In this document: one piece after another, positions 17,180 to 62,908 of the stretch | How the letters are laid out: every line of letters starts with the position of its first letter | Numbering within the stretch: the first letter of the stretch is position 1 | DNA from: an uncultured Candidatus Saccharibacteria bacterium | GTDB taxonomy: Bacteria > Patescibacteriota > Minisyncoccia > Phycocordibacterales > UBA9973 | DNA length: 64,000 nt | Assembly (NCBI GenBank): GCA_964631935.1 | Contig: CAZWAV010000003.1 | Coordinates: 10,894-74,893, forward strand | Direction of reading: 5' to 3' | Position numbers and translations under genes: made by a program | Notes under the pieces: model-generated | What the model was told of the DNA's origin: nothing | Databases searched by the model: none | What the model saw: the letters and a program-made list of their open reading frames with translations, nothing else

Positions 17180-20100
17180 TTAAGGTGTAATTGTAGTATC
17201 GGTTGGTGTGCTGTCACCTGTGTTTTGATCAGGAGGAGGAGTTACATCTACTATACAATTGTTTGTTTCATCTAGGTGGTAACCTGTAGGTATTTCAGAT
17301 TGTACATCGTCTATATTTGGACAGATGTCGGTTGGAAGTGGTGGTGGATCGATGGGACCGCCGCCTCCACCAGAATTAATATTGTTAAGTAAAAGTTGTA
17401 GTTGATCTTTTGTTACACAAACATCTTCGAGGCATAATTTCTTTGCATGGACCTCTCCAAAGAAAACTATATCTAGGCTATTACTAACACTCCCCAAGAA
17501 ATTTTTAATTAATGATCCAAGAGAATTTGCATTTTCTGTATCCAAAGATGAGAGTCCTTCTATTTTTACATCAAGCTCTTTGATTGCATTCACGAGGATT
17601 GGTGTCATGCCTGCATAATTGACTTGGTAGTAACCAGTCGATGTAGTTGAAACGAGTGTCGGGAAAGATTCTTTTAGGTTTTGAGCAAGGAATCCAATTT
17701 GTGGATTTGAATTTGGATTATTCTTCCAGTTATAAGTTATAGTTCTGATATTTTTTAATAAATCGAGAGTTGACGACAGATCAGAGATGTTTGTCTTTAA
17801 TCTTTCATCTGAAGTACAATTGATACCTGCAGTATCTGGACGGATAGTACAAGTTTGTGAAGCGCCTGTGATAAATACTTCTTCGATAGGACGAGTGGTT
17901 GAGCCGACCATAAGCTGATTGATAGCTGTGTTAGTAGCATAAGAACCTATAGCAATAGAATTTTTAAATCCATTAGTAGTAGTATTGTTACCAATTAAAA
18001 TTGAGAAGTCATCTGGATCTCCAGTATTATCTACAGGATCACCACTAAAGATTCCCCCTCCGGCTAATGTACCTATGAAAATAGAGTGTGATGCATAATA
18101 TGCATTCCACCCAGCGCCGTCCCCAATAAACGTTGAGTAAGTTGCAGCACCTGCAGCGTTTCCTGCTTGGTATCCGATGAAGTTTGAGTTTGATGCCCCT
18201 CCCTGCCCAGCGCCATTACCAATGAAGTTTGAGTCTGAAACACTCGAAGCACTCTGACCAGCCCCTTGTCCAATGAAGTTTGAGGTAGACACGTTATTGG
18301 CACCCGATCCTGCCGCTGAACCAATGAAGTTTGATTGGGAAGTATTGTACGCGCCATTACCCGTTTGATATCCGGTGAAGTTTGAATAAGAGTTATTGTA
18401 CGCACCATTACCCGCTTGATATCCGGTGAAGTTGGAATATGCGGCATTGGACGCACTGTTGCCAGATTGAAATCCAATAAAGTTTGAATTATCTGCGCCA
18501 CTAGCACCGTATCCGGCTTCTCTTCCAAGAAAGACCGTTAGTGTTGAAGATCCACCACTGCTCCCTGCGGCCGTTCCGAGCCATGTTTCGCTATCAATTG
18601 TTGATGTTGAACCAACAAGTCCAGCTCCTGCTGCTGCCCAGGAAGCAACCCCACTACCATCAGTTTTCAAAAAATATCCATTCGTACCAGCAGATGTTGG
18701 GAGTGTCAGTGTCCATGTACCCGCCGCAGCTGCTGGCTGAACAATAACTTTCCCTGATGTTGACCCAGCAAATGAGAGCACACCGAGTCGTGACCCTGTC
18801 GTACCCAAAGAGAGGAGTTCTCCTGGATTATTGTTTGCAATACCTATTTTACCAGCAGTCGTCGGTGTAGCCGATGGTGTTGTATTATTATCAATACTGA
18901 TACCATAGAGAACATTCCCGATGTTGAGTTGTTGCGTTGCGCTATTTTGTGTTCCTTGGCCAATCGCAATGCTGTCTGAAAAACCACCCGTCTTTGTATA
19001 ATTACCAATGAGAATCGACGATTTAGTGCCTGATGTATTGTTGACAGTATCATTGATCCCAGAATTAACACCAAGAAAAATTGAATTCTTTGCGTTCGTC
19101 GCATTATATCCAGCATTTGTCCCTATGAACGTTGCATACCCGGCATTAGTAGCACCATACCCTGTTTGTTCTCCAAAGAAATTGGCGTTTGTGGCACTAG
19201 TTGCATTATAACCCGCACCATCTCCTATGAAGTTTGAGTAGGAAGCACCTGTAGCCTGGAACCCAGCAAGATTACCGAGGAAATTTGAAGCGGCGGCACT
19301 TGTTGCTCCGTAACCAGATTGAAAACCAAAGAAGTTCGACAATTGGGCACTTGTGGCAGCGCGTCCAGATTGGTACCCAAAAAAGTTTGACGAGGAAGCA
19401 CCTGTAGCCTGGAACCCAGCAGCACTGCCAAAGAAGTTTGAGTTTGCCGCACTCGTTGCTTGATATCCCGCGGAACTTCCCAAGAAATTTGAGTTATTTG
19501 CAGAAGTAGCCCCGTTTCCAGCGTTTAATCCTAAAAAGTTTGAATATGAAGCACTTGGGGCAAGGTACCCGGAATTGTATCCTAAAAAGTTAGCGTATAT
19601 TGCTGTCGTTGCTTGATATCCCGATTGAACACCTATGAAATTTGAACCAGACGCACTAGTAGCTTGAAACCCAGCACCACTACCAAAGAAATTCGAATTG
19701 GGTGCGCTCGACGCTTGATATCCCGCACCACCTCCTAAGAAAATCGAGCTCCCAGCATTTGTTGCCTGACTTCCTGCTAAATCTCCGATAAATATTGAAC
19801 CATTTGCATTAGTAGAATATGCTCCAGCTTGATCTCCTATAAAAGTAGAAGAGCTTGCATTTGTTGCTTGAAACCCAGCACTGTTTCCAAAAAAGTTTGA
19901 TTTGAGTGCATTTGTCGCCTGCTGTCCGGCACCCGCACCAAAGAAGTTAGAATCACGAGCTGAAGTAGCTACAGTACCTGCATTGTATCCAAGGAAATTT
20001 GACTGGTATGCGCCGGTTGCATTTAATCCTGCGTTTAATCCAAAAAAGTTTGAGTAATGTGCATCTGTTGCAAGTTTACCTGCTTGATATCCAATAAAAT

Positions 20101-20659
20101 TTGAGTTGTATGCATTTGTCGAACCAAAGCCTGCAGAATATCCGATAAAGTTTGATTGCGATGCGCTTGTTGCAGCAGAACCTGAAAAGCCACCGATAAA
20201 GTTTGATTGCGATGCGCTTGTTGCAGAGATACCTGCATTGTCTCCTATAAAAATTGACTGTATAGCACTTGTCGCATTCTTTCCTGCATCAACACCAATG
20301 AACACAGTGCGATTAGTTGATGCTGTTCCTAAACCTCCTAGACTTGTACCTAAAAATGTTTCCGTCCCGGATGTCGACGTCGATCCCAAAAGTCCTCCCG
20401 CCGCCACACTCGCCCAACTCGTCACACTCCCATCAGTAGTAAGATACTTACCAGAATTACCAGTCTGATCAGGTAGGATTTGAACATAACAGTTAGTATC
20501 TGTAGGGGTACAGGCAGGATCAAGAGTTTGACCTGGTTGGTATGGTGAAACTATAGCGTAAGTATGTATGTAGTAGCCTAATAGGAATACAGACAGAGAG
20601 ACTACAAGTAGCTTGGAGAAGAAATGATAGATAAACTTTTTTGATTTGTTTTCTGACAT
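17180..20659 (-). CDS. tail-fibre-like surface protein with ~35 tandem 18-aa phage-fibre-type repeats and C-terminal intramolecular-chaperone domain, paralog 2
   Basis: Same N-terminal 78 aa as paralog 1; long array of SNF[IFL]G..AG..AT.A.. 18-residue repeats (Phage_fiber_2/YadA-head-like); same C-terminal SDERLK chaperone domain. Confidence 0.75.
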   Translation of the reverse strand: MSENKSKKFIYHFFSKLLVVSLSVFLLGYYIHTYAIVSPYQPGQTLDPACTPTDTNCYVQILPDQTGNSGKYLTTDGSVTSWASVAAGGLLGSTSTSGTETFLGTSLGGLGTASTNRTVFIGVDAGKNATSAIQSIFIGDNAGISATSASQSNFIGGFSGSAATSASQSNFIGYSAGFGSTNAYNSNFIGYQAGKLATDAHYSNFFGLNAGLNATGAYQSNFLGYNAGTVATSARDSNFFGAGAGQQATNALKSNFFGNSAGFQATNASSSTFIGDQAGAYSTNANGSIFIGDLAGSQATNAGSSIFLGGGAGYQASSAPNSNFFGSGAGFQATSASGSNFIGVQSGYQATTAIYANFLGYNSGYLAPSASYSNFLGLNAGNGATSANNSNFLGSSAGYQATSAANSNFFGSAAGFQATGASSSNFFGYQSGRAATSAQLSNFFGFQSGYGATSAAASNFLGNLAGFQATGASYSNFIGDGAGYNATSATNANFFGEQTGYGATNAGYATFIGTNAGYNATNAKNSIFLGVNSGINDTVNNTSGTKSSILIGNYTKTGGFSDSIAIGQGTQNSATQQLNIGNVLYGISIDNNTTPSATPTTAGKIGIANNNPGELLSLGTTGSRLGVLSFAGSTSGKVIVQPAAAAGTWTLTLPTSAGTNGYFLKTDGSGVASWAAAGAGLVGSTSTIDSETWLGTAAGSSGGSSTLTVFLGREAGYGASGADNSNFIGFQSGNSASNAAYSNFTGYQAGNGAYNNSYSNFTGYQTGNGAYNTSQSNFIGSAAGSGANNVSTSNFIGQGAGQSASSVSDSNFIGNGAGQGGASNSNFIGYQAGNAAGAATYSTFIGDGAGWNAYYASHSIFIGTLAGGGIFSGDPVDNTGDPDDFSILIGNNTTTNGFKNSIAIGSYATNTAINQLMVGSTTRPIEEVFITGASQTCTIRPDTAGINCTSDERLKTNISDLSSTLDLLKNIRTITYNWKNNPNSNPQIGFLAQNLKESFPTLVSTTSTGYYQVNYAGMTPILVNAIKELDVKIEGLSSLDTENANSLGSLIKNFLGSVSNSLDIVFFGEVHAKKLCLEDVCVTKDQLQLLLNNINSGGGGGPIDPPPLPTDICPNIDDVQSEIPTGYHLDETNNCIVDVTPPPDQNTGDSTPTDTTITP

Positions 20660-20708
20660 ATGTGATTGGTGCAAAAAGGCCAATATACATATGTATTATA
20701 GAATATGT
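20401..20708. repeat. ~305-bp direct repeat copy B (promoter plus 5' coding end of tail-fibre paralogs)
   Basis: See copy A; only a few mismatches (e.g. gttaagaac vs gtaagatac; gggg vs ggtg in the leader). Confidence 0.8.
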
Positions 20709-22589: not shown

Positions 22590-23180
22590 ATGGACACATT
22601 CATACCGAAAACATTCACTATCCCAAAACTTACTGGAATTAGTGCAAAAAATATCGAAGAACATTTAAAGCTCTACGAGGGCTACGTAAATAATGCGAAT
22701 TTAATTTTGAAAAAAATAAAAGAACTTAGTGAAGATTCTGATAAAAATGCATATATTCTTGGAGAACTTCAGCGTAGATTTTCTTTTGAATTCGATGGCA
22801 TGCGTAATCATGAGTATTACTTTCATTCACTCGAAGGTGGTCCAGCACGCTTACCTTTTGAAAATACCCTCACCTATGCACTAGAAAAGGAGTGGGGTTC
22901 AATGGATAAATTTATCGATAGATTCAAAGCCATAGCTATGACTCGTGGTATCGGCTGGGCTATGCTCTACTATGATAAAGAGAGCGATCACCTGCTCACT
23001 CAGTGGGTAGAAGAACAACATTTAGGCCACCTCACTGGCCTCACACCAGTACTTTGTCTTGATATGTGGGAACATGCATATGTCTATGACTATCCGACAA
23101 GTGAAAAGAAAAAATACATTGAGGCATTCTTTGCAAATCTAAACTGGGAAGTTATTGAGAAAAACTTTGTAGGTAAATAA
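22590..23180 (+). CDS. sod: Fe/Mn-type superoxide dismutase (divergent N-terminal metal-ligand region)
   Basis: DMWEHAYVYDY (DxWEHAYY motif), FANLNWEVI; N-terminal helical hairpin has EEHLKLYEGYV instead of the canonical H..KHH..YV. Confidence 0.8.
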   Translation: MDTFIPKTFTIPKLTGISAKNIEEHLKLYEGYVNNANLILKKIKELSEDSDKNAYILGELQRRFSFEFDGMRNHEYYFHSLEGGPARLPFENTLTYALEKEWGSMDKFIDRFKAIAMTRGIGWAMLYYDKESDHLLTQWVEEQHLGHLTGLTPVLCLDMWEHAYVYDYPTSEKKKYIEAFFANLNWEVIEKNFVGK

Positions 23181-27171: not shown

Positions 27172-27582
27172 TTATGATTGTAGCATAAAGTTAACTCCGG
27201 ATATAAAAAAATGTATGTAGCCACAGAGGGTTACATACATAATCATAATAAGGTGAGCTCTTTGGTTGCTATTTATGGAAAAAAGCAATAATTTCAGGAA
27301 ATTTGGCACCAATCATCAAAAGAATAACGAGTGCTAAAAATGCTTTAAATCCAAAACTGGTAAAAACTGACGGAGCGCATGGGTTGTCATTAAAAATTTT
27401 TACTTTTTTCATAAGCAAATTTTTAAGGGTTAAGTAATAAGATATTTTAAAGGTCAAATAAGTTCTAACCCCTAAAAGATATCATCATTTCCCCAAAAAG
27501 AATACCTTTGCTAATATCGTGCCATAAGCCCATTTTAAAGTCAAAAGGCAGAAGTGGATAAGAAGTGGGCAAATATTTTTAC

Positions 27583-42147: not shown

Positions 42148-42720
42148 TTATTTGGGTAGAGCTGTTGCCTGAATTTCTTTTTTTGACATATATCTATGAT
42201 TTATCATAAGCAGTACTATCAGGGCTTGTGCAGTTAAGGCCATAACTGGAATAGTAATATACCCGAATTCAAAGACATACCGTGCTGCGCATGTAATACT
42301 TCCTTCAACATAATTAGAACAAGACAGATCTGATGCTCCTCCATTCTCTACATATATATGATAGACAGAGACAAGCATTCCAAGAAAAGCGACAATGGCA
42401 CTTAGAGTTATTAGTTGTTTTTTTTCTTTCCATAAAGCTATCCCTAGTATAAGTACTTGTGGATATATAAAAAATCTCTGGGCCCAACATAATTCGCAAG
42501 CTGCAAATCCAACAACTTCTGAATAAAATAGCGAGAGAGCAACAGAAGATAATGCAATACCTAAAGCAAAATAAACCCCATATTTATGAAAGAACATAAG
42601 CATAGGGTTAGTGTTTGATCTTTTGAAAATTAAATTCCCCAGGACAAAAACAAAGACAACTTGCATGGCTATGGTCCCCATAGCCAGAAGATAATTTAAT
42701 GTCTCTACGTATGCTGGCAT
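42148..42720 (-). CDS. disulfide bond formation protein B (DsbB/BdbC family)
   Basis: 4 TM helices; CELCWAQRFFIYPQ in the first loop region (cf. B. subtilis BdbC CELCWYQRI) plus a second Cys pair CSNY......C. Confidence 0.65.
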   Translation of the reverse strand: MPAYVETLNYLLAMGTIAMQVVFVFVLGNLIFKRSNTNPMLMFFHKYGVYFALGIALSSVALSLFYSEVVGFAACELCWAQRFFIYPQVLILGIALWKEKKQLITLSAIVAFLGMLVSVYHIYVENGGASDLSCSNYVEGSITCAARYVFEFGYITIPVMALTAQALIVLLMINHRYMSKKEIQATALPK

Positions 42721-43304: not shown

Positions 43305-44318
43305 CTACTCTTCTTTTGGTTTGTCATCCTTCTTCTCATTGTTGTGTCCATGGGCATCTACCTCATAAGCAGTGTTCTGTGCTTCAAAGAAATTAACAAG
43401 CTCATATACGTCTGTAGATGTTGCCATCCATTTTGCAGGATTTGTAACATTAAAGTGAGTTGGCAAACCTAGCTCTTCAAGTCTACGGTCAGCTACATAT
43501 TGAACATATTGATTTACATAATCAGCATTAAGCCCAAGTATTCCCTTTGGAAATAGATCTTTGTTGTAAGCAACTTCGAGATTTACTCCTTCGATAACTA
43601 TGTCTCGGATTTCATTTGCAAATTCTTCAGTCAGTAATTCAGCATTCTCTTCAAGTATTGTGTGTATAAGATTGATACCAAATTTTAGGTGGAGTGATTC
43701 ATCGCGAATAACCCAGTTGATCATTGACCCTAGATTGCGGAGCTGGTTACGCTGACGGAAAGAAAGCGCCACCATGAATCCAGAGTAGAACCAAATTCCT
43801 TCCATGACAATATTGGTAGCAACAAGGTTACGCAAGAAATCTTTCTTCCCTTCTGGAGTTTCAATATCGAGAGTATCCTCAGTCATACGAAGAAGATACT
43901 TCTTGATGAAATCTTCTTTCTTCTCCATTGAATCAAGTTCAAGGTGCACATTGTAAACCTTCTCGCGATCAAGTGGGAAAGTTTCAAGAACATATTCAAA
44001 TGATACACAGTGGTTCGCTTCTTCGAACATCTGCTTTGCTAAGTATAAGTGACACTCTGGACTCTTGATGTAAGGATACACTCCAAGAGCAAGTGAGCGA
44101 TTCACAATAAGCTCAGCTGGGTTAAAGAATGCCATGAGAAATTCGACAGCATGACGCTCATCATCGGTCATAGCTTTCCAGTCTACCAAGTCTTCCCCGA
44201 GAGCGATCTCGTGCGGGAACCAAGTATTTCGAACAGCCTGATTGTACAATTCATAAGCCCACTTATAGTGCATGGGATGAAGATTCATATCTTCGGGAGA
44301 TGCTTTTCCTAAAATCAT
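43305..44318 (-). CDS. nrdB: class I ribonucleotide reductase small subunit (R2)
   Basis: Ferritin-like diiron motifs E..H (EEANHCVSFEY; MEGIWFYSGF...), 337 aa. Confidence 0.85.
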   Translation of the reverse strand: MILGKASPEDMNLHPMHYKWAYELYNQAVRNTWFPHEIALGEDLVDWKAMTDDERHAVEFLMAFFNPAELIVNRSLALGVYPYIKSPECHLYLAKQMFEEANHCVSFEYVLETFPLDREKVYNVHLELDSMEKKEDFIKKYLLRMTEDTLDIETPEGKKDFLRNLVATNIVMEGIWFYSGFMVALSFRQRNQLRNLGSMINWVIRDESLHLKFGINLIHTILEENAELLTEEFANEIRDIVIEGVNLEVAYNKDLFPKGILGLNADYVNQYVQYVADRRLEELGLPTHFNVTNPAKWMATSTDVYELVNFFEAQNTAYEVDAHGHNNEKKDDKPKEE

Positions 44319-44341
44319 ATATATTTTTTATTAACTAGTAA

Positions 44342-46936
44342 TTACTGACAACTTTCACACAAAAACTTATCATTTGGGTCTTCTGGTAGATATACATTTG
44401 AGGAGGCACTTGGTGAATTCGTGGTCGTAGATTGACCAACGTTTGTAAGATCCATTTCCTTTTGGACTATATTTACAGGACTTGCAACTACAGGCTCTGA
44501 TACTTCTTCTGTTAAGATAGTATTCACCTTAGTATCTCTCAGTGCGGCGAACCCCCTACGTCCCATGGCTTCAGATTTATTTACACGAGTTGTAGATTGC
44601 TCTGCAGAGTGACGAGGCTTCATGTGTAAGTAGTAAGTAGTTTTCAATCCTTTATCCCATGCGCTTGTGTAGATATTCATAATCTCATCTATATCACGAA
44701 TATCAAGATACATGTTACGAGAGATTCCCATGTCCACCCATTTCTGTGCACGAGCTGCAACTTCTATAAATGCATAAGGAGAAACAGAGAAAGAAGTTTT
44801 ATATATACGCTTGATGTGATCTGGAATCTCAGCGATATCTGCAATGTCTCCATGGTGTTCTAGTATCTGTTCACGAACTTTTTCCCAAAGATTTTCTTTC
44901 TGGAGAGCAGAGACAAGGTTTGGATTTATTTCAAGATACTTACCTGAGATTTTATTTCTCGAAAACATTTGTGCAAATCTTGGATCAATACCAGGTGCAG
45001 TCCCCGCGACAAGTCCGATATTTGCATTTGGTGCAATAGCAAGAAGAGTGGCATTACGTATTCCCTTCTTTACCTTTGCTCGAACTTTATCCCAATCAAG
45101 AGTAGGTAAAATTTTTGCAGAATCTTTTTTAGTTAGAAGTTCACGTCCACGCTCAAGTTGCAACTTGTCCATCGTATCTATTGGCACGTGACCTTTCGCC
45201 CATTCTGAACCTTTGAAATTTTTGTATGCACCACGCTCTTCGGCTAAGTCTGCACTCTCATCGATCGCCATATAAGAAATAAATTCAAATACTTGATCTG
45301 AGAAATCAAAAGCTTCTTTATCTTCATATGAGTAACCGAGCTGTTCAATAGCATCAGAGAATCCCATGAGACCTAGTCCAACGGCACGATTCTCAGAATC
45401 TGCACGACGAGCTTCTTGTATAGGTAATTCATTGATGTCTACCAAGTTATCGAGTTGTCTTATCGCAAGACGAGTACTGTCCTCTAATCTGTGCCAATCT
45501 ATCTGACCATTCACAATGTGACGAGCTATATTTATAGACACAAGGTTACATACAGCTACATTGTCACGATCAGTTGGAAGAGTAACTTCTGTACAAAGGT
45601 TTGAACAGTGGATAGTCCCAGTGTTGTTGTTGAGGGCACGTACATTTATAGTGTCCTTCCAGGTTAGCCATGGATGTGAAGTAGTTTCAAGAGAAACCAA
45701 TATGTTCTTGTATTGCTGACGAGCTGGGATAACGTTATATAGCTTCATTTTTCCGGCTTTAGCCTTCTCAACATACTCATTGTAACGCTTAGAAAATTCC
45801 TGACCATAAAGCTCATTTAGGTCTGCAACCTCTTTCGGATCAAATAGATACCAGTCATCACCATTAAGAACTCTTTTCATGAATTCATCTGATATATATA
45901 CAGCGGTATTTGCAGTACGAGCACGACGATAGTCATCGCCATTGTTTTGCTTGAGATCTAGGAAATCTTGGAAGTTTAGATGCCAGTTCTCCATATAGAA
46001 ACATAAAGCACCTTTTTTCTTTCCCCCACGTTGAACAGCACGGACAGCAGAGTCGATGATGTGCATGAATGGAATTGGTCCAGATGAAACTGTGTTGTTT
46101 GATTTCAGAAGTGAACCTTCGGCACGAAGTTTTGTAACTGATAGACCGATACCTCCCGTTGCTTTTGAAAGAAGTAAAACATCGGAGACAGTTTTACCGA
46201 TGTGCTCCATATCATCATGAATTTCCATTAAGAAACAGTTTGAAAGTTTTGGGTGTGGAGTACCAGCACCGATGTTTGATGATCCAGCAGAAAGATATTC
46301 GAGTGCAGACATCTTTGCGTAAAACTTTTTCGCCCACTCTGTAGGATTACTTTCGTTGAGTGACATACCCATCGCAACTCGCATCCAGAAATATTGTGGG
46401 GTCTCGAGTGGTGCTTGTACTTCATCCTTCATAAGATAGCGATTGAGCATTGTCGAGAGTCCAGAATATTTATACAAATCATCATTATCAATATTTAAAC
46501 TCTCTGAAAGTATATCTAAATCAAATGCAGTCGCCATTCGTGCATCGAGTAATTTCTTTTCAACAGCGTTTTGTATATATTCTTTGAAGTGAGCAGCGTG
46601 AAGTTTATTAAATTCTTCTTTAGTTATAACTGCTGCTTCGTTATCAGGATCATAATCCCCCATTACTTTCTTATATATAACTTTCAGAAGTAATCTAGTG
46701 GCAATTTTATCAAATTCTAGATCGTATTGAGTATTTTGAAGAGCCGCATTGATTGTAGCGAGATCTAATTCTTCAGTTGTAATACCATCGTAAAGAGTAA
46801 GTCTAGTTTCTGTTGCGATTTGGATAACTTTACTTATTGGATCAGTCATTCCGTAACATGCGCGCTCGATTGATTTGTTGATTCGGTCGGCATTAAAGGA
46901 TGCTTTTGTTCCGTCTCTTTTTGTGATGGTTGTCAT
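44342..46936 (-). CDS. nrdA: class I ribonucleotide reductase large subunit (R1) with N-terminal ATP-cone
   Basis: ATP-cone (KRDGTKASFNADRINKSIE), active-site CSNLCTEV, C-terminal Cys pair (..CESCQ). Confidence 0.9.
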   Translation of the reverse strand: MTTITKRDGTKASFNADRINKSIERACYGMTDPISKVIQIATETRLTLYDGITTEELDLATINAALQNTQYDLEFDKIATRLLLKVIYKKVMGDYDPDNEAAVITKEEFNKLHAAHFKEYIQNAVEKKLLDARMATAFDLDILSESLNIDNDDLYKYSGLSTMLNRYLMKDEVQAPLETPQYFWMRVAMGMSLNESNPTEWAKKFYAKMSALEYLSAGSSNIGAGTPHPKLSNCFLMEIHDDMEHIGKTVSDVLLLSKATGGIGLSVTKLRAEGSLLKSNNTVSSGPIPFMHIIDSAVRAVQRGGKKKGALCFYMENWHLNFQDFLDLKQNNGDDYRRARTANTAVYISDEFMKRVLNGDDWYLFDPKEVADLNELYGQEFSKRYNEYVEKAKAGKMKLYNVIPARQQYKNILVSLETTSHPWLTWKDTINVRALNNNTGTIHCSNLCTEVTLPTDRDNVAVCNLVSINIARHIVNGQIDWHRLEDSTRLAIRQLDNLVDINELPIQEARRADSENRAVGLGLMGFSDAIEQLGYSYEDKEAFDFSDQVFEFISYMAIDESADLAEERGAYKNFKGSEWAKGHVPIDTMDKLQLERGRELLTKKDSAKILPTLDWDKVRAKVKKGIRNATLLAIAPNANIGLVAGTAPGIDPRFAQMFSRNKISGKYLEINPNLVSALQKENLWEKVREQILEHHGDIADIAEIPDHIKRIYKTSFSVSPYAFIEVAARAQKWVDMGISRNMYLDIRDIDEIMNIYTSAWDKGLKTTYYLHMKPRHSAEQSTTRVNKSEAMGRRGFAALRDTKVNTILTEEVSEPVVASPVNIVQKEMDLTNVGQSTTTNSPSASSNVYLPEDPNDKFLCESCQ

Positions 46937-47190: not shown

Positions 47191-47211
47191 TTCAGTGGAT
47201 AACTTTTTGTT

Positions 47212-53785: not shown

Positions 53786-54205
53786 TTAATATGCGATTAG
53801 ATGGAGATAAGAAAATAAAGCTATAAGAATAGAAGTTAGAGCAGATGATAGACACCATACACACCAATGTTTAACAACAAACGCTTGAATGGAAACTAAA
53901 TAAAGAGAGAATAAACATGCGCATAAACTAATACCTAAAAGTACTATAGCAACTTGGTACGACCACGCTCCTCCTATAAAAATAAAAGTATAAGCACTTC
54001 CAATAAATGCATAGTAAACCATACCTAGTACTTCGACAGGAATTCCAATTATTTTCGAATAGTCAGAATGTATAACCGTATCGCATGTTGAATACCTAGG
54101 ACAGATGAGCTTTTTCTTGGCTTTTTTCTTGCTATATATATAAAAAGACAAGAAGAAACCACAGAGCCCGAGTAGGCTGATAATATTTACAAAAATTATA
54201 TCCAT
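53786..54205 (-). CDS. vitamin K epoxide reductase (VKOR)-family membrane protein
   Basis: 4 TM; loop cysteines CPRYSTC and TM4 active site CVWC, the VKOR arrangement. Confidence 0.6.
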   Translation of the reverse strand: MDIIFVNIISLLGLCGFFLSFYIYSKKKAKKKLICPRYSTCDTVIHSDYSKIIGIPVEVLGMVYYAFIGSAYTFIFIGGAWSYQVAIVLLGISLCACLFSLYLVSIQAFVVKHWCVWCLSSALTSILIALFSYLHLIAY

Positions 54206-54206
54206 A

Positions 54207-56381
54207 TTATTGGCAGATTGCGCCTTTCGGCACAGTGTTAAGAATAGTAGTTGTCCCCTTGCTGTCTACACAGAAAGAAGTATTTGGATCGCTCGAGAGC
54301 GGTGCAGAAAGTGCCCAAGCATCAGGAGTAGAGTAGCAAGAAAGTGCTCCGCCTGTTGTGCTTAGGATTTCATTCATCAGACTAGCAATATTACCGACAA
54401 CTACATTTGCCCCTTTTACGTGACCAATTGGTGAGAATAGTGAGCTTGGGTTTGGATTTGTACAGCTACCTGTAGGATTTGTACGTTTGCCATAGCTACC
54501 GATTGCGTTATGGAAGTTATTAGCAAGTGGCTTGAAAGCAGAAATCTTGTCTTTTATTTTCATATCTGTAATCTTTTTCATAAACTCATCTACACTTATA
54601 GATGCCTCAGGGAAAGGAATATCGTTAGAGACATCAAAATCATAGTAAGTAGTTTTCCAATCAAGGCTTACTACATTGCCAGCGATACCTTTGTCGTCGA
54701 GACCTATAAGTCTAGAGAGTGGTGTCTTTAGAGTAAATTTATATTGATGTATTTTACTATCGTCCTTCCCTATCCAAACTTCTAGTGAGTCGAGAGTAAC
54801 TGCTCCAAGTCTTTCGTCTAAAATACTTTTCTCTGCATTAGATAAATTTTTTGTAAATACACTTATGAATTGAGATACTAGTTTTTTTGTTGCCTCTTTG
54901 TCAGCACTTAGTTCGTAATGATAAGACAAAACTCCATGTATAGATTCTTGTTCCTTTTCTATTACAGTGACACTGTTAACAAAATCTTTAAAGATTGACC
55001 CTGTTTCATTATTTATATAAGAAGGCACTCCAATAGAAAGGAGTTTTTCGATATCAATTTTAGTAAACTTATCAGCAATACTATCTGGGAGTAGAGCTAT
55101 AAATGAATCAAACTGGCCTTTCGGTACTAAGACTACTTCTGGCTTGGGTGTATTCATGCCAAGTAATTCACTTAAATCAGGAGTAGTTACAAAGGTAGTT
55201 AAATCATTATATCTAAGCTTGGTTATAATATCATCTTTAAAAAAGGAACTCTTAAAAGTGGCATCGTATGAGAAAACTGGAGATAAGCCACTTTCGTGAT
55301 TTACAATTCCTTTGGCTGACAAAGAGACCGTATCTGTGTCTTTAGATGAAACAGCCTCCCCGCTTACTAAACCAGATGTAATATCTGCAATAGACGGAGC
55401 TGTAACGCTTGCAGTTGTTTGTATCTTATATGATTTCAACTCATCAAGAATAATAGGTGCGTTTACTAATAGAAGTTTGGGGTCTTTTTTAATAAATGAA
55501 AAATTAAAAGATGGTAATTTTATATAGTCTTCCATGAAAGCAAAAACTGACCCGCCAATAGCACTCAATATCAATATAACAATAAGCCATTTTAGTAGTG
55601 TATTTCTTTTTTTCTTTGATAGTTCTGTGTTTACTTGATTGGCAGATGACAAAACTTTTTGATATGAGTGGAGTAAAGCACTATTAGGCAAATCTGTAAT
55701 CGTAGACATTCTTGATGATAGTGGAATAGCTTGATTTATTTTTAAGCTAGGTGCTGGAACAGGATTTATTATTGGTTTTACTAATGTTGGTATTACTGGT
55801 GTAGGTGTTATTGCTGGAGGGTTTTTGGGTATAAGCGTAGGTATTAGTTCTTCTTCTTGAACTTCTATATTTCTTACACTAGGATACTCGATAGCTTTGG
55901 CTGGAGCAGGAGCAGAGATAGGTTCAGATACTTTTGGATTGGCTTCGCTAAAGCTATTTGAAAATACAGGTTTTATTGGTGTAGAATTTTGGTTATTTTG
56001 ATTTTCTATTTCGGGCTTCTTTTCTATTGTTGGAGTAGATACAGGGATCGATAGTTCTTTGGGTGTCAATTTTATAGGAGCCCATATTTTATCTGGTACT
56101 TGCTGTGGCTCATCTGCAACTATTTTTTCAAGATATGGATCAGGTCCTTCTCTTTTTTCTGTAACATTAGTATTGATAGGCACAGATAAGGGTTTAACTA
56201 CTGGTGGAGTTACGGGTTTAGGAATACTTATAGGCGGAGTTGGTGGATTTATTTTTCTAAATGCTTCTTCTACATCATCTTTATGCCAACCTTTATCAAG
56301 TAGGCGTGAAGTAATAAAACTATCAGAAATATTTTTCCTACGTTGTGCCTGAATATAGGCAATTAAATCCTCAGTTATCAT
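54207..56381 (-). CDS. large bitopic membrane protein: small N-terminal cytoplasmic domain, Pro-rich linker, TM, ~450-aa extracellular domain with C-terminal Cys cluster
   Basis: 724 aa; PTPPISIPKPVTPPVVKP low-complexity region; TM LLKWLIVILILSAIGGSVFAF; no recognisable family. Confidence 0.5.
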   Translation of the reverse strand: MITEDLIAYIQAQRRKNISDSFITSRLLDKGWHKDDVEEAFRKINPPTPPISIPKPVTPPVVKPLSVPINTNVTEKREGPDPYLEKIVADEPQQVPDKIWAPIKLTPKELSIPVSTPTIEKKPEIENQNNQNSTPIKPVFSNSFSEANPKVSEPISAPAPAKAIEYPSVRNIEVQEEELIPTLIPKNPPAITPTPVIPTLVKPIINPVPAPSLKINQAIPLSSRMSTITDLPNSALLHSYQKVLSSANQVNTELSKKKRNTLLKWLIVILILSAIGGSVFAFMEDYIKLPSFNFSFIKKDPKLLLVNAPIILDELKSYKIQTTASVTAPSIADITSGLVSGEAVSSKDTDTVSLSAKGIVNHESGLSPVFSYDATFKSSFFKDDIITKLRYNDLTTFVTTPDLSELLGMNTPKPEVVLVPKGQFDSFIALLPDSIADKFTKIDIEKLLSIGVPSYINNETGSIFKDFVNSVTVIEKEQESIHGVLSYHYELSADKEATKKLVSQFISVFTKNLSNAEKSILDERLGAVTLDSLEVWIGKDDSKIHQYKFTLKTPLSRLIGLDDKGIAGNVVSLDWKTTYYDFDVSNDIPFPEASISVDEFMKKITDMKIKDKISAFKPLANNFHNAIGSYGKRTNPTGSCTNPNPSSLFSPIGHVKGANVVVGNIASLMNEILSTTGGALSCYSTPDAWALSAPLSSDPNTSFCVDSKGTTTILNTVPKGAICQ

Positions 56382-56968: not shown

Positions 56969-57526
56969 TTATTCTTTCCAATCTATGTGCTTTTCTTCAC
57001 GAATAGCACATGTACGATTAACAAAATCTTCACGACCTGAACCCTTTCGGTAGGCCATATAATGAGCTGGATTTTTCTCGGCATAATTCTGGTGATATTC
57101 TTCTGCCTTATAAAAAGGTGCTAATTCTAGAACTTCCACTGCGTGGGGTTTATCATAAATATGACTATCGTCTAATTCTTTAAGTAGACCTTCCGCAATC
57201 ATTTTCTCTTCATCTGTACTAAAATAAATTGCTGTTTTGTAGCTTCCACCCCTATCCCCAAACTGGCCACCTTCATCAGTCGGATCTATATGGTCAAGGA
57301 AAAACTGCACAAGCTTTTTGTAAGAATTTTTGTTTGAATCATATTCTACTTCTATCGCTTCACGATGACCTTTATGATTCTCATATGTCGGATTTGTAGA
57401 TTCCCCTCCTGTGTACCCAGATACTATATTTGTAACACCCATTGCTTCATGAAAATCATGCTCAACACACCAGAAACATCCCCCTGCAAAAATAGCTTTA
57501 TTCATATTATTTATTGTTACTGACAT
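56969..57526 (-). CDS. msrA: peptide-methionine (S)-S-oxide reductase MsrA
   Basis: AIFAGGCFWCVE active site, HDPT-like and GGQF/GDRG motifs. Alternative ATG at 57505 (MNKAIFAGG) would avoid overlap with the upstream gene. Confidence 0.9.
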   Translation of the reverse strand: MSVTINNMNKAIFAGGCFWCVEHDFHEAMGVTNIVSGYTGGESTNPTYENHKGHREAIEVEYDSNKNSYKKLVQFFLDHIDPTDEGGQFGDRGGSYKTAIYFSTDEEKMIAEGLLKELDDSHIYDKPHAVEVLELAPFYKAEEYHQNYAEKNPAHYMAYRKGSGREDFVNRTCAIREEKHIDWKE

Positions 57527-57990
57527 TGTTCTTTAGGCACTCCAAGGCATGGGCCGTATGCTTCATACAAAATAGACACAATTTTATCTACATACGCAGC
57601 ATCACTCGGTACACGCTTTTTATAAACATTTAAATATGCATCAAGATTAAGATAAATATCTCCAGTGAAAGCAGGATCTTTTTTATATTGAACATTTAGA
57701 TTTTCAACCAATATTGGTATCGCAGCTTTTAGATCAGGAATTGATAGAGCTTCTGCATCAGCTTGATATGTCATATATAATTCTTGAGTATCTTCGCCTA
57801 TTGTCTGGGTATCTTTTTCTGTTTGGCTTTGACTTACTTTAGATTTTATATCATTCATTAGATCTGGGTTGTGTTTCTTGTTCCAGATAACCCCAAACGC
57901 AAGGAGAACAATAAAACCCACAGTAATTAATATACTTGATATTTTTAAATCAGATTTAGAATATTGATTTTCCATGTAACCATTATACAA
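57517..57990 (-). CDS. hypothetical membrane-anchored protein
   Basis: 157 aa, single N-terminal TM, C-terminal Cys pair (CLGVPKEQC). Confidence 0.4.
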   Translation of the reverse strand: MYNGYMENQYSKSDLKISSILITVGFIVLLAFGVIWNKKHNPDLMNDIKSKVSQSQTEKDTQTIGEDTQELYMTYQADAEALSIPDLKAAIPILVENLNVQYKKDPAFTGDIYLNLDAYLNVYKKRVPSDAAYVDKIVSILYEAYGPCLGVPKEQCQ

Positions 57991-58023: not shown

Positions 58024-58353
58024 TTAAGCTTTGGCTTTTTGTGAAAGCTCGTGAAGAATACGACATGGCTCAACAATGCGAGGATCAATGATGTTGTAGT
58101 AGCCATTTAACCCATTGCGTCTTACTGTAACGAGTTTTGCGTGACGAAGCAGTGCTAGGTGTTGTGAGACATTGGCTTTAGTGACTCCTAGGGTTTTAAT
58201 AAGCTGTTCAACAGACATTTCTTGTTCACGGAGTAGGTTTAAAATCTCTAACCTCTTTGGATTAGCTAGGATTTTATATGTTTCGGCATTCTTTTGATAT
58301 GCACTTCTTGGGAGAGGTTGTTTTATCTTCATAGTTTCTAAATTATGCAACAA
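58024..58353 (-). CDS. ArsR/SmtB-family winged-helix transcriptional regulator
   Basis: ILANPKRLEILNLL......V..L.......ANVSQHL..L....LV is an ArsR HTH. Confidence 0.8.
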   Translation of the reverse strand: MLHNLETMKIKQPLPRSAYQKNAETYKILANPKRLEILNLLREQEMSVEQLIKTLGVTKANVSQHLALLRHAKLVTVRRNGLNGYYNIIDPRIVEPCRILHELSQKAKA

Positions 58354-58370
58354 GCAAAGTTAAAAAGCAA

Positions 58371-58940
58371 TCATTTATATAATGGTTTGTTTTCATAAAA
58401 ACCTTCTTGATAATTAGCTAAGCGAGCCAGAGCATACAATACACTTGAGAGTCGATTAAGGAATATAATACTTTCATTGTGAATCACTCTCTCCTCCTTT
58501 TCTTGTAGTAACACAACATGTCTCTCTGCTCTACGTGCAACAGTGCGAACAACATCAAGATAAGCCCCGCATTCTCCACCACCAGGAACAATAAATGATT
58601 TTATTGGTGGTAGTATTGTTTCTACTTCAGAAATAACTTTTTCAAGATAAATTATATGTTTTTTATTTAAGTGTATATCTGAACCACCAATTTCAGCTTG
58701 AATAGAAAATACATTCTGCTGAAGATTATCTATTATTTTTTCATAGGGAATTTTCTCATTTTCCATATAAAAATATGGGTTTGATTTTTTTGAAAGTGCT
58801 TTTGCGTATCCAAGCGATGAATTTAACTCATCTAATGTTCCGAGAACTTCAAAAACAAATGAACCTTTTGAAAGTCTTATTCCTTGGGGGCAGTCGAACA
58901 GTTTAGTTGTTCCATTATCTCCTTTTCCTGTATACAACAT
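58371..58940 (-). CDS. PduO-type ATP:cob(I)alamin adenosyltransferase
   Basis: MLYTGKGDNGTT N-terminus (T.GD.G.T hallmark) and a helical bundle. The ORF track's 5' extension to 59012 overlaps nrdJ and is probably spurious. Confidence 0.8.
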   Translation of the reverse strand: MLYTGKGDNGTTKLFDCPQGIRLSKGSFVFEVLGTLDELNSSLGYAKALSKKSNPYFYMENEKIPYEKIIDNLQQNVFSIQAEIGGSDIHLNKKHIIYLEKVISEVETILPPIKSFIVPGGGECGAYLDVVRTVARRAERHVVLLQEKEERVIHNESIIFLNRLSSVLYALARLANYQEGFYENKPLYK

Positions 58941-58944
58941 AAAA

Positions 58945-61218
58945 TTATACTTCACAAAGACCTCCGACACAGGCGAGCTCACGCTTAACTTCTGTTTCAT
59001 CTTCTGTCTCATAAGTCACAATTTTAGAAAAATCTATCTCCCCAAGCCTTTTTGTCATTTCTTCATATTTTTCTTTTGTTATTGTTTCATATGGTGCCAA
59101 CTGATATACATGGTTTGATCTTGGAAGAAACGACAGACCTCCGACTAACTCCCAATTCTCATATATCCAATGTGCAACAGAAAGCCATTCGTCTTCGCCA
59201 ACAGAAATAGTCACCGATGGATTATGTTCAGTAAAATTCTTTTTTACTATTTTCCAGTGTTCTAGTTGTTCAATTGCATTTATATCATCTTTGCAAATAG
59301 CTCCCTCGGGGGCTTTAACCGGAAACTCGAGCACAAAGGTTGTAGCATTTTCTAATGTCTGACCGACCTCAGGGGAATATGGTACACCCTGATCTTTCAA
59401 CATATTAAATAGTGCATCAGTAGCTGAAATACGTATACGACGTATATAGTATGGGGCGTGCCTAGGATGCATACCAGAAGCACAATCAACAGTCTGAGAC
59501 ACAGTGCCAGAGGGCTTAACACAAGTAATGCAAGTCGATGGTCCCACACCGAAACGTTTAGCATATTTTTTGTTTGTTTCGATAGCAACTTGTTTCATCT
59601 TTTCTAGAATTTTTGGATTACGAACCGCCTCACAATCCCATTGTCCAGTAATAGAAACTCCGAGCAATCTTTCTGCTTCACAATTAGCTTTCCATTCTTT
59701 TGATAGATAAGGAAAATATGTAAGAGTGGATTGGTATGTACCTAAAATTGTTGCAACACGAATTTTTTTAATTAATGTATCTTCATTGTCTTCTGCTCGT
59801 GCTATAACCTCAGAAAGATTACAAAATTGTTTTGATTGCAAAATTATTTCCCCACAAGGGTTAGTCCCCCATGAAGGATACTGTCCATCTTTCCATTGAT
59901 TCAATCTCCTTTTGGGTAAAGTACCCGCAAGCCCACCACGATTAAATATTCCACGCTCTCCACTGCCACTTTTTACTAAAGCAATCCATTCTTCCATAAA
60001 TTCTGTTGTGGTTGGTTTTGAAAGATAGACAGCAGAATTATTGGCAAGCATTCTTTGCCCTTCTGAAATATAAAATTGCCCTGATTTAGAATCACGAATG
60101 GCTTCATCATCTAAATCAGAAAGAGATATCATTGCACTTCTACGCACTCCTCCAGCAACAACACATTCACCAATCTTACATATTATGTCGTGTGCATCAA
60201 GGTTAGATAAGTGTCTACCCTGGCGACGTAGCACCCGGGCACGAGTGAAATCAAGAAGCGAGTGTAGTGGTTCTGGGCCAGAACTTTTACCTCCCATTGT
60301 TTTCAAACGTGAACCAGCTGGGCGAATAAGGGAATAATCAAAATCAATATCCCCTCCTTCAAACCAAGTCTTAAGACCAAGACTAAGCGCATCCGCCCAG
60401 CCTTCTTTGGTGTCAGGGATTGTATGCGTTGGTAATTTTTTACCATTTTGTTTTTGAATTTGAGGAAGGGCCTGAATATTTTCACTTTCTACTGACCAAC
60501 CCACCCCTGTCCCACACATAGATATATACATAATTTCAGCAAAATCTTGAAATGTTTTAGGTGCGATAAATGAGCAATTATAAGCACAAACATTAGTTCG
60601 CCTTGCTGCCTTACCAGCAAACTGTAGGAGGCGCATGGAAGGCATTGATTCTTGACTTAGAATAGCCTCTCTAATTTCAGCATATTCACTTTCATTAAGT
60701 TTTGATCCAATATTATCTCGCATGAAATTTAGATACCTATCAACAGTCTCAATCCATGTTTCCCTGCGATCTTCTTCTGGGACCCATTTGGCATATGTAC
60801 GATAGTAGACCAGTTCAGCAAGTGGATTTCTAAAATATTTTTTACTTTCTGCTACAAGTTCTTTGACTTTTTCTGGGACAAAACCAACTTTCTGCCTCAC
60901 GAGCGAACGTTCGTTGCGATACAATATATAAGCTTTAGCTGTAGCTAAAAATCCAGAAGCAATCAATTCATTCTCAACAATATCTTGAATCGTTTCAACT
61001 GTTGGTATAAAAATTTTAATCTTTTTTTCTTTTTTGAGAGCAATAAGAGCATCTAATACTTTATACATTACAGTAGAAGCATGGGCCTCATCCCCTTCTC
61101 TTACAGACTGCATAGCACGAAAAACAGCACGACTAATGCGCTTCTCATCTAGGGGAACAATGGTACCATCGCGCTTTTGTATTCTTGAAAGTTGTTTATA
61201 TTTTTTATTATTTTTCAT
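58945..61218 (-). CDS. nrdJ: class II adenosylcobalamin-dependent ribonucleotide reductase with N-terminal ATP-cone
   Basis: ATP-cone (KRDGTIVPLDEKRISRAV), active-site NPCGEI, C-terminal redox Cys pair (CVGGLCEV); 757 aa. Confidence 0.85.
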   Translation of the reverse strand: MKNNKKYKQLSRIQKRDGTIVPLDEKRISRAVFRAMQSVREGDEAHASTVMYKVLDALIALKKEKKIKIFIPTVETIQDIVENELIASGFLATAKAYILYRNERSLVRQKVGFVPEKVKELVAESKKYFRNPLAELVYYRTYAKWVPEEDRRETWIETVDRYLNFMRDNIGSKLNESEYAEIREAILSQESMPSMRLLQFAGKAARRTNVCAYNCSFIAPKTFQDFAEIMYISMCGTGVGWSVESENIQALPQIQKQNGKKLPTHTIPDTKEGWADALSLGLKTWFEGGDIDFDYSLIRPAGSRLKTMGGKSSGPEPLHSLLDFTRARVLRRQGRHLSNLDAHDIICKIGECVVAGGVRRSAMISLSDLDDEAIRDSKSGQFYISEGQRMLANNSAVYLSKPTTTEFMEEWIALVKSGSGERGIFNRGGLAGTLPKRRLNQWKDGQYPSWGTNPCGEIILQSKQFCNLSEVIARAEDNEDTLIKKIRVATILGTYQSTLTYFPYLSKEWKANCEAERLLGVSITGQWDCEAVRNPKILEKMKQVAIETNKKYAKRFGVGPSTCITCVKPSGTVSQTVDCASGMHPRHAPYYIRRIRISATDALFNMLKDQGVPYSPEVGQTLENATTFVLEFPVKAPEGAICKDDINAIEQLEHWKIVKKNFTEHNPSVTISVGEDEWLSVAHWIYENWELVGGLSFLPRSNHVYQLAPYETITKEKYEEMTKRLGEIDFSKIVTYETEDETEVKRELACVGGLCEV

Positions 61219-61220
61219 AA

Positions 61221-61766
61221 TTATGCGTGATTATTCTTAAAGATAGAAATAATAGATGGTACTTCAAGTTTTCTATTTTCAACAACAAAAGTATATATTG
61301 CAGGGGATAAAATTAGAGAGAAACTCACATTTCCAATAAGATGCATAGCTGTAAATGGAATCTGTCCTATAAAAGCCTCAGTGAATGGTTGATGAAAGAA
61401 AATTGGGCCGATTAATAACCCTGTAACAATATCAAAAGCAAGGGTACCGATAATGGCAAATTTTACATAATTAATTGAGTTATTACTTTTATTTTTGAAA
61501 TAAAATCCTGCCCAAAGACCCAATAAGCCGTAAGCAGAGGCAGTTATAAATGTCCACATACCAACTTTCCCAGTTAGTATGTCGTAGAGCACAATACTAA
61601 GGAAGGCAAAAACGAATCCAGAAATTTTTCCATAGGCTTTTGCAAATGGCATTTGTGTTGCAAGAATTGGCTCTATGTTTGGCGGACGAAACGGAATAAG
61701 TCTTATTAAAAGACAAACAACAAATCCCACAACATACTTAAACCAGTTCTTTTTATATGTTTCCAT
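61221..61766 (-). CDS. small 5-6-TM membrane protein, possibly an ECF-transporter S-component-like vitamin carrier
   Basis: 181 aa, 5-6 helices, 3-nt gap to nrdJ; family assignment tentative. Confidence 0.35.
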   Translation of the reverse strand: METYKKNWFKYVVGFVVCLLIRLIPFRPPNIEPILATQMPFAKAYGKISGFVFAFLSIVLYDILTGKVGMWTFITASAYGLLGLWAGFYFKNKSNNSINYVKFAIIGTLAFDIVTGLLIGPIFFHQPFTEAFIGQIPFTAMHLIGNVSFSLILSPAIYTFVVENRKLEVPSIISIFKNNHA

Positions 61767-61903
61767 AATTTGAGGTACTTAAAACCACTTGGCAACACTA
61801 CAAGTGGGGTATATAATAATTATAGTTGCAAAGTTGCGAAACTACTAAACCAGTATACTCCCGAGTTGAAAACTTACGCAACAGTGGATAACTATCTTTT
61901 AAT

Positions 61904-62515
61904 ATGTTCTATTGTCGAGTAGCATATATAGAGACACTTTTATTAATTAATGAAATACACATAATGAAACAATACATTATAGATGACTCCCCTTTGGCAA
62001 AGTTCCTTTTTACAAATAAAAAGTCGGCGTGGATATGGCTTATCTTGCGTATCTATGTCGGTTTAGAGTGGCTTTCAGCTGGGTGGGAAAAGATCCACTC
62101 TGCAGTCTGGGTTGGACCAAATGCTGGTGGTGCAATTTCAGGTTTTATAAATGGTGCACTTTCAAAGACTGTAGGTGCTCACCCTGATGTGCAAGGTTGG
62201 TATGCTTATTTTTTACAAAATATTGTACTCCCCCATGCAAACACATGGTCACACGCAGTAGCATACGGTGAGGTATTGGTAGGTATCGCTCTTATTATAG
62301 GAGCATTTACTGGTATTGCAGCTTTCTTTGGACTTTTTATGAATCTAAATTATTTACTCGCTGGAACTGTGAGTACTAATCCAATCCTATTTACTTGTAG
62401 TATTGGTATTATTCTTGCATGGAGAGTTGCAGGCTATATTGGTATAGATAGCTATCTACTACCACATTTAGGGACTCCGTGGAAAAGGGACTTACCTCCA
62501 GTATCTGGGCTTTAA
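61904..62515 (+). CDS. DoxX-family membrane protein
   Basis: RIYVGLEWLSAGWEK and 4 TM helices; may start at the ATG at 61964 (MKQYIID). Confidence 0.6.
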   Translation: MFYCRVAYIETLLLINEIHIMKQYIIDDSPLAKFLFTNKKSAWIWLILRIYVGLEWLSAGWEKIHSAVWVGPNAGGAISGFINGALSKTVGAHPDVQGWYAYFLQNIVLPHANTWSHAVAYGEVLVGIALIIGAFTGIAAFFGLFMNLNYLLAGTVSTNPILFTCSIGIILAWRVAGYIGIDSYLLPHLGTPWKRDLPPVSGL

Positions 62516-62542: not shown

Positions 62543-62908
62543 ATGAATACTGAAAAAAAGATGGAGTGGGCATTGAGGATTGGTGTGGCCGGTGAATTTA
62601 TAGGACATGGCGCATTGGCGCTTGGAGGCAAAGCAGATTGGGTTAGTTGGGTTCAGCAATTATCTGGCTTTAGTCAACCTGCCGCAATAAAAACTATTTT
62701 TATTATCGGAGTAGTAGATATAATTTTGGCAATTATAGTTCTTGTTAAGCCAATGAAGCCTTTACTCCTATGGATGGCATTCTGGGGATTTTTCACTGCA
62801 ATTTTACGTCCAATTGTTGGACAATCAATTTGGGATTTCGTAGAACGTTTTGCAAACTGGGGGGCACCACTTGCTTTGTATTTCTTATATAAATCAAAAA
62901 ATAATTAA
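62543..62908 (+). CDS. small DoxX-like membrane protein
   Basis: 121 aa, 3-4 TM, LRIGVAGEFIGHG resembles DoxX-like proteins. Confidence 0.45.
   Translation: MNTEKKMEWALRIGVAGEFIGHGALALGGKADWVSWVQQLSGFSQPAAIKTIFIIGVVDIILAIIVLVKPMKPLLLWMAFWGFFTAILRPIVGQSIWDFVERFANWGAPLALYFLYKSKNN

Follow-up and report, generated by a model that had tools for sequence, protein, structure and literature searches.

Patescibacteria have tiny genomes and take most of their cofactors from neighbours. In Lactobacillus delbrueckii, an energy-coupling factor (ECF) transporter built around the S-component CbrT was reportedly predicted by Rodionov et al. in 2009. CbrT has since been shown experimentally to carry cobalamin and cobinamide, and its gene belongs to an nrdJ-cbrS-cbrT-pduO cluster (PMC5997447). 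The BtuM-BtuR pair provides a precedent for a solitary carrier acting with metabolic trapping by an adenosyltransferase encoded next to it (PMC6072759). Here we analyse a four-gene region within a 64,000-nt stretch of Patescibacteria DNA (contig CAZWAV010000003.1, positions 10,894 to 74,893; hereafter "the window", meaning the whole stretch), in which genes for a CbrT-like membrane protein, a B12-dependent ribonucleotide reductase (nrdJ), an adenosyltransferase (pduO) and a regulator (arsR) follow one another. Comparison with related genomes leads us to conclude that this is probably an operon, shared across the Paceibacteria lineage, with which vitamin B12 is scavenged and used.

The four genes occupy positions 58024-61766, all on the minus strand, with near-zero spacers and a GC content of ~36-37 % throughout. 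In the order of transcription they encode a 181-aa membrane protein with an ECF S-component-like fold, a predicted corrinoid carrier resembling CbrT (61221..61766; Pfam DUF6580 / ECF-ribofla_trS); a 757-aa class II ribonucleotide reductase (RNR) predicted to depend on adenosylcobalamin (AdoCbl), of the monomeric ribonucleoside-triphosphate reductase (RTPR) type with an N-terminal ATP-cone (58945..61218); a 189-aa PduO-type ATP:cob(I)alamin adenosyltransferase (58371..58940); and a 102-aa regulator of the ArsR/SmtB family, a predicted autoregulated repressor of the operon (58024..58332). The stop codon of the S-component gene (TAA, 61223-61221) is separated from the ATG of nrdJ (61218) by 2 nt. 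The start of pduO is ATG 58940, 4 nt past the nrdJ stop, which gives the N-terminus of the family (MLYTGKGDNGTT); a longer mechanical open reading frame (ORF), 58371-59012, overlaps nrdJ and its start is not the family N-terminus, while the Joint Genome Institute gene call also has 189 aa. Finally, arsR begins 38 nt past pduO at ATG 58332 (MKIKQPLPRSAY), a start found in all orthologues; TTG 58353 was rejected as the start. A first-pass annotation of the window had already placed a class II B12-dependent RNR at 58945-61218, a PduO-type enzyme 4 nt downstream of it, an ArsR regulator just beyond, and a possible vitamin carrier of the ECF S-component type 3 nt upstream. The first three calls are borne out by the searches described below; as for the carrier, its S-component-like nature stands and the 3-nt gap does not. 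Proteins identical or nearly identical to these occur only in metagenomic assemblies of Patescibacteria (Paceibacteria/Nomurabacteria).

Evidence for a functional unit comes from comparing 23 species-representative genomes that carry the S-component gene (loci searched over +/-6 kb, 349 kb in total; L numbers below designate individual loci). The nrdJ gene lies directly 3' of the S-component gene in 21 of the 23 species, and an adenosyltransferase gene then follows in 20 (17 of PduO type, three of CobA/BtuR type). Being kept in 21 of 23 species-level genomes, the gene order goes beyond chance, and the arrangement characterises the lineage as a whole and is no peculiarity of the window's genome. 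In the three exceptional species the slot of pduO is taken by a CobA/BtuR-type gene (PF02572, 1.7e-52; L007:7752-8288, L008:5451-5975 and L024:4507-5028). The replacement of PduO by an unrelated fold with the same activity strongly indicates that selection acts on adenosylation.

At least 10 of the loci also hold transcobalamin-like genes, coding for a small DUF4430 protein and for a surface protein of 650-720 aa that joins DUF4430 to an alpha/alpha-toroid region and weakly matches eukaryotic cobalamin binders. In transcobalamins, DUF4430 forms the C-terminal domain (PMC4350170). In eight of these loci a riboswitch reaching the gathering score stands exactly between the adenosyltransferase and the DUF4430 genes, either AdoCbl (RF01482; L007:8282-8430 and L024:5023-5181) or AdoCbl-II (RF01689; L013:9462-9556, L014:7553-7645, L021:8399-8489, L022:9614-9704, L023:5235-5322 and L026:9883-9973). 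The riboswitches of the relatives thus precede the DUF4430 genes and not the S-component gene. The DUF4430 proteins, the large surface proteins among them, are probably B12-repressed extracellular binders of B12. These riboswitches and transcobalamin-like genes mark the locus as a cobalamin locus in a lineage that senses AdoCbl. The window itself contains no DUF4430 genes and represents a minimal version of it. The cobalamin salvage that the first-pass annotation had deduced from the window's own genes is strengthened by the conserved synteny, by the exchange of PduO for CobA/BtuR in three relatives, and by the relatives' AdoCbl riboswitches and transcobalamin-like genes.

Each of the proteins was then assigned by profile and structure searches. 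NrdJ contains the Pfam domains ATP-cone (residues 12-105), RNR_Alpha, RNR-II_ins_dom and the barrel, and its best NCBIfam model is TIGR02505, the RTPR model (1.2e-86, 291.5 bits, model positions 180-722). The dimeric NrdJ_Z model scores 44.7 bits, and models of class I and class III RNRs match through the ATP-cone only. The putative loop-1 insertion domain (PF21995, residues 260-322), which in the monomeric type mimics the dimer interface, scores 31 bits against a cut-off of 27. Among solved structures the best match is the RTPR of L. leichmannii (1l1l, 5.4e-49), to which the functional motifs align: TNPCGEI and FCNL in NrdJ correspond to GTNPCGEI and PCNL, and CVGGLC, part of the C-terminal motif CVGGLCEV, corresponds to CEGGAC. 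Residues N214-C215, C455, C466, C750 and C755 are invariant among relatives, and the catalytic set of the type is present: a finger-loop thiyl Cys accompanied by Asn and Glu, a pair of active-site cysteines and a redox cysteine pair at the C-terminus. By sequence membership NrdJ is therefore a class II RNR of the monomeric RTPR/NrdJm type. An AlphaFold2 (AF2) model built from 26 close homologues was too poor (mean predicted local distance difference test, pLDDT, 56), and we used it neither for fold searches nor for cysteine geometry. The match to the ATP-cone model is nearly complete (PF03477, 5.1e-19, positions 2-87 of 88), with K15-R16-D17-G18 conserved, and is present in all of more than 120 Paceibacteria homologues (78-86 % identical), which NCBI names either ribonucleoside-triphosphate reductase or "ATP cone domain-containing protein". 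Such cones occur in ~11 % of class II RNR sequences, and in the single class II enzyme with an ATP-cone that has been studied, activity was not regulated (PMC9669993).

The adenosyltransferase matches PF01923 at positions 1-170 of 171 (6e-41) and TIGR00636 with 142.4 bits, above the cut-off of 108.45; solved structures of the PduO/MMAB type match it at 1e-24 to 1e-19. These scores identify it as a full-length PduO-type enzyme, over the curated threshold.

The membrane protein is more divergent. Its Pfam matches, to DUF6580 and to the riboflavin S-component family, are weak (~34 bits each), as is its NCBIfam match to a riboflavin S-component, and a single-sequence search of the Protein Data Bank (PDB) returned no match. 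The family is small, with 245 representatives in an exhaustive search, and within Paceibacteria its members are 64-86 % identical. Invariant positions include R22, P25-F-R-P-P-N-I-E-P33, D62, G69-x-W-T, Y79-G and D112, as well as T115-G, Q135-x-P-F, H142 and G145-N; the sole conserved cysteine is C18, in helix 1. An AF2 model from 83 diverse members (pLDDT 94.9, predicted template modelling score 0.88) shows six or seven helices, and the top 20 Foldseek matches to it are all S-components, with template modelling scores of 0.5-0.7; S-components among the best structural matches are RibU, FolT, ThiT, PanT, BioY and BtuM. The modelled fold is thus that of an ECF S-component. CbrT (6fnp_A) was reached only with the family profile, at E 3.5e-12, the next S-component following at 0.09, and hhalign of the family against CbrT gave 96.7 % over 135 columns. 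The two have in common the motifs C-x3-R, PN-x-[EQ]-P, G-[IM]-W-T, A-Y and F-x3-H-x2-G-N. They appear homologous at the profile level, the membrane protein belonging to a sister or distant subfamily and not being a clear orthologue of CbrT. An identity as BtuM was considered and rejected: there is no cysteine in the 65-70 loop and no profile match, and BtuM comes only at Foldseek rank 50.

Regarding regulation, a search of the window for cobalamin riboswitches (Rfam AdoCbl, AdoCbl-II and Cobalamin) gave none at the gathering score and none at E <= 1; an NrdR-like ORF and an NrdR-box-like palindrome are likewise absent. The ArsR protein matches HTH_5 (3.8e-14) and scores 83 bits with NF033788, above the cut-off of 55. 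In 13 of 21 relatives arsR forms part of the locus; orthologues of the protein are 80-90 % identical and keep an invariant DPRIVEPCRILH tail that holds the sole cysteine. The protein has a winged-helix core, and its best solved matches are SmtB, Rv0081 and HlyU. Of the known metal-sensing sites, the protein has no alpha3 CxC, and the SmtB alpha5 ligand His106 aligns with an arginine; another invariant set is D83/E88/C90/H94. We can only speculate that the effector is a redox or cobalt signal.

An inverted repeat links this regulator to the operon. One copy (AGTTTCGCAACTTTGCAACT; 61824..61843, minus strand), a predicted operator with one mismatch to the consensus AGTTGC-N8-GCAACT, lies in the operon promoter, just past a -10-like TATACT (61852-61857) and overlapping a second -35-like element, TTCGCA. 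The other (TGTTGCATAATTTAGAAACT; 58333..58352, minus strand) abuts the start codon of arsR and has two mismatches. The promoter repeat is perfect, and in the same position, in 11 relatives. Upstream of arsR it is perfect in L007, L008, L010, L012 and L024, the two-mismatch variant being conserved in L017, L019 and L020, and it is found there even where arsR lies 2-3 kb from the operon (L007, L008, L023 and L024). With its 12 specified bases, the repeat has 16 perfect copies in the 349 kb, against ~0.01 expected as estimated from base composition, and every copy, perfect or with one mismatch, stands at the operon promoter or immediately upstream of arsR. The consensus structure of the leader computed with RNAalifold consists of the repeat stem only; it shows no covariation and its sequence is near-invariant, as expected of a protein-binding DNA site. 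We conclude that ArsR most likely represses both the operon and its own gene through AGTTGC-N8-GCAACT, as predicted from this distribution. In L014, near 4000-4040 (~60-100 nt upstream of the S-component start), the half-sites are kept and the spacer is expanded in an insertion-like manner (AGTTGCC - ~27 nt - GGCAACT).

The whole leader upstream of the S-component gene is conserved at the DNA level across species. It runs from GTTATCCAC, abutting a -35-like TTGC, through a -10-like GTATA(C/A)T, a near-invariant TAGTTGCGAAACTATGCAACTA and ATTATACAC, to a hairpin followed by a T-run. In the window this hairpin is CCACTTG-N9-CAAGTGG followed by TTTT (61785..61807, minus strand), ~20 nt before the S-component ATG. 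When the corresponding position was compared across L007-L028, 14 of 16 leaders formed a hairpin there, of a modest stability (-3 to -11 kcal/mol) and with a different stem sequence in L009, L015, L021, L023 and L025. Since stem sequences differ between species, the changes are compensatory; the hairpin could be a 5'-terminal stabiliser or an attenuator. The GTTATCCAC motif (61884..61892, minus strand, directly upstream of a -35-like TTGCGT at 61876-61881) is similar to the DnaA-box consensus TTATCCACA and is also conserved before the operon in 13 relatives. The window contains exactly two copies, each upstream of an RNR operon: here and at 47195-47203 (minus strand), ~260 nt before nrdA, with AGTTATCCACTG present at both copies. 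A third TTATCCACT lies upstream of a recJ-like gene (27553-27561, minus strand). The motif may couple the supply of deoxyribonucleotides to the control of replication, or may serve another factor.

Taken together, these data suggest the following pathway. The S-component-fold protein, as a distant homologue of CbrT, would bind an external corrinoid and carry it across the membrane. The PduO-type enzyme would then adenosylate the corrinoid, a function established for its family, and in doing so would also trap it in the cell. By homology to L. leichmannii RTPR, the reductase would use AdoCbl to generate a thiyl radical on Cys455 for O2-independent ribonucleotide reduction, and would be re-reduced through its C-terminal Cys750/Cys755 pair, while the N-terminal ATP-cone may add control by ATP/dATP. 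The class I enzyme NrdAB, encoded 12 kb away, would serve under oxic conditions. Transcription would be controlled by the co-located ArsR-family protein and not by a B12 riboswitch, with ArsR binding the AGTTGC-N8-GCAACT repeat at both of its sites, as the comparison of relatives indicates.

Several observations weigh against this explanation of the locus. In L006 and L027 the S-component gene occurs without nrdJ, and in L006 (6001-7166) it shares 4 nt with a gene for a PurN-like formyltransferase (PF00551), the one genomic setting that hints at a link of folate type and not to B12. Relative to CbrT, pairwise identity amounts to ~21-28 % (28 % over 69 residues), and CbrT itself belongs to Pfam PF12822, not to DUF6580. 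The distant members of the family that form a high-GC DUF6580 branch adjoin an Aminotran_4 gene and no B12 genes, so the B12 assignment is confined to the Paceibacteria subfamily. On the side of the reductase, the TIGR02505 score is under the curated cut-off of 340, and the usual glutamate of ATP-cones, three residues past the glycine of KRDG, is a valine. A search for ABC-ATPase motifs found no ECF module in the window or within +/-6 kb of the 23 loci, and solitary CbrT failed to sustain uptake of B12 in E. coli. Lastly, the operator copies of the window carry one and two mismatches, and within the window alone their pattern is not above chance.

Some of these points would fit an S-component with a substrate other than B12, for instance a nucleoside or a vitamin of the folate or flavin type; its linkage to nrdJ would stem from co-expression with DNA-precursor metabolism, and B12 would have another way in. 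The weak riboflavin S-component matches, the folate-dependent-type formyltransferase gene 3' of the carrier gene in L006 and the position of distant family members 3' of an Aminotran_4 gene all lean this way. We nevertheless find it quite improbable: no other characterised S-component comes near CbrT in similarity (3.5e-12 versus 0.09 or above), the gene is tied in 20 species to nrdJ and to an adenosyltransferase of either of two unrelated folds, and B12 riboswitches and transcobalamin-like genes share the locus, with no other B12 importer seen. Granting that the substrate is a corrinoid, the carrier might work alone, without an ECF ATPase, by facilitated diffusion pulled by adenosylation and NrdJ binding, as proposed for BtuM-BtuR. 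The single ABC ATPase of the window belongs to a MacB/FtsX/HlyD system, only such systems occur in the other loci, and these have neither tandem EcfA genes nor an EcfT-like neighbour, so that ecfA, ecfA' and ecfT are all lacking from these 64 kb and from the +/-6 kb of the 23 relatives. In addition, the carrier gene is tightly, and apparently translationally, linked to that of the adenosyltransferase, as btuM is to btuR, and the small residues of CbrT helix 1 (A-x3-A) align with Val/Ile in the DUF6580 family. However, the S-component genes of shared-module (Group II) systems normally lie remote from the module, and the lack of one nearby therefore says little; CbrT alone is inactive in E. coli, the loop-3 cysteine of BtuM is absent here, and BtuM ranks low in the fold search. 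Solitary trapping uptake is thus a real possibility that we hold tentatively; slightly more likely, and usual for CbrT, is the use of a shared ECF module whose genes lie elsewhere.

The predicted operator can be challenged in a similar way. The repeat shares positions with -35-like and -10-like hexamers, a 6-bp stem could form from it in RNA, and the ArsR protein lacks the canonical SmtB alpha5 histidine and any evident known effector site. The repeat might then be a promoter element, a leader RNA hairpin or the site of another factor, and ArsR a mere neighbour with an unrelated metal regulon. This is unlikely in our view, given that the same repeat is found directly upstream of arsR even at 2-3 kb from the operon, that its near-invariant stem shows no covariation and that it occurs nowhere else in the 349 kb. 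Returning to the B12 operon, its most elaborate form would combine a solitary DUF6580 carrier without an ECF ATPase, driven by adenosylation and fed in many species by riboswitch-controlled transcobalamin-like binders; an ArsR-type sensor of redox or cobalt switching the operon; and an ATP-cone giving dATP control to a monomeric class II reductase. As a complete package we consider this rather doubtful.

The genomic surroundings include the class I RNR that the first-pass annotation had recognised at 43305-46936. Both of its subunits score over the NCBIfam curated cut-offs: nrdA (44342-46936, minus strand; NF005101, 1243.7 against 988) and nrdB (43305-44318, minus strand; NF007186, 363 against 237). 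Around the B12 operon are several thiol- and oxidative-stress genes, encoding VKOR (53786-54205), MsrA (56969-57526), DsbB (42148-42720), an Fe/Mn superoxide dismutase (22590-23180) and two DoxX-family membrane proteins (61904-62515 and 62543-62908), the genes of the last two running divergently from the operon. Their presence suggests exposure to oxygen and may bear a relation to the ArsR signal. Just downstream of arsR are two conserved minus-strand genes without a Pfam match: 54207-56381 encodes a protein of 724 aa that is rich in proline in its N-terminal half and has one membrane helix and a cysteine-containing C-terminus, and 57517-57990 a 157-aa membrane-anchored protein. Farther away, three large adjacent genes on the minus strand (12781-20683) encode proteins of 690, 747 and 1167 aa with CarboxypepD_reg, Peptidase_S74 (a tail-spike chaperone domain) and no Pfam match, respectively; these may be surface/adhesion proteins or phage-derived.

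A conserved and tight unit for import, activation and use would mean that the DNA synthesis of this clade is wired to externally supplied B12. This has a bearing on how much the clade depends on a host and on its cultivation, where B12 could be supplied. Among the compact test cases that the locus provides are an uncharacterised S-component family whose substrate is strongly predicted, and a predicted operator/regulator pair for an RNR operon that involves neither NrdR nor a riboswitch. Our searches of the literature on CPR (candidate phyla radiation) bacteria with ECF, B12 or RNR, and on DUF6580, turned up no earlier account of this operon or of DUF6580, and none of CPR bacteria with ECF systems.

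Compared with known systems, the individual proteins combine familiar and unfamiliar traits. NrdJ and the RTPR of L. leichmannii (1L1L) have in common the finger loop with NPCGE, the second active-site cysteine, the C-x4-C tail and, probably, the insertion domain in loop 1, whereas NrdJ has ~110 extra N-terminal residues forming the ATP-cone and scores below the cut-off of the equivalog model. The adenosyltransferase matches PduO of L. reuteri (3CI1) and human MMAB (2IDX) over its full length, including the N-terminal T-x-K-G-D-x-G-x-T ATP motif, and differs from them as a stand-alone single domain without the context of a Pdu microcompartment. With SmtB and the ArsR repressors that lack a classical metal site (Rv0081, HlyU, PagR and NolR), the ArsR protein of the window shares a winged-helix core and, by prediction, a palindromic operator and autoregulation. 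It differs in its lone invariant cysteine, in the DPRIVEPCRILH tail, and in its predicted target, an RNR/B12 operon; our literature search found no report of an ArsR-family repressor with such a target.

At the level of gene clusters, BtuM-BtuR of Thiobacillus denitrificans (PMC6072759) likewise places a small S-component-fold gene beside a cobalamin adenosyltransferase gene, with no ECF module nearby, and in three relatives of the window the adenosyltransferase is itself of the BtuR/CobA type. However, BtuM comes from Gram-negative proteobacteria, and the protein of the window does not have its invariant loop-3 Cys80, gives no profile match to it and is only a mid-rank match to its fold. The closest parallel is the nrdJ-cbrS-cbrT-pduO cluster of L. 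delbrueckii (PDB 6FNP; Santos et al. 2018, PMC5997447), which also sets an S-component, an RTPR-type class II reductase and a PduO-type adenosyltransferase side by side. The overall logic is hence already known from L. delbrueckii, and the unit described here is the CPR version of a B12-salvage/RTPR cluster. The operon of the window differs from it in gene order, in the absence of cbrS and in an S-component belonging to DUF6580 and not to PF12822. What is new is this divergent, uncharacterised S-component, the ATP-cone on a reductase of the monomeric type, the apparent control by an ArsR-type repressor at a predicted operator in place of a riboswitch and, in the relatives, the addition of riboswitch-controlled, transcobalamin-like DUF4430 surface proteins.

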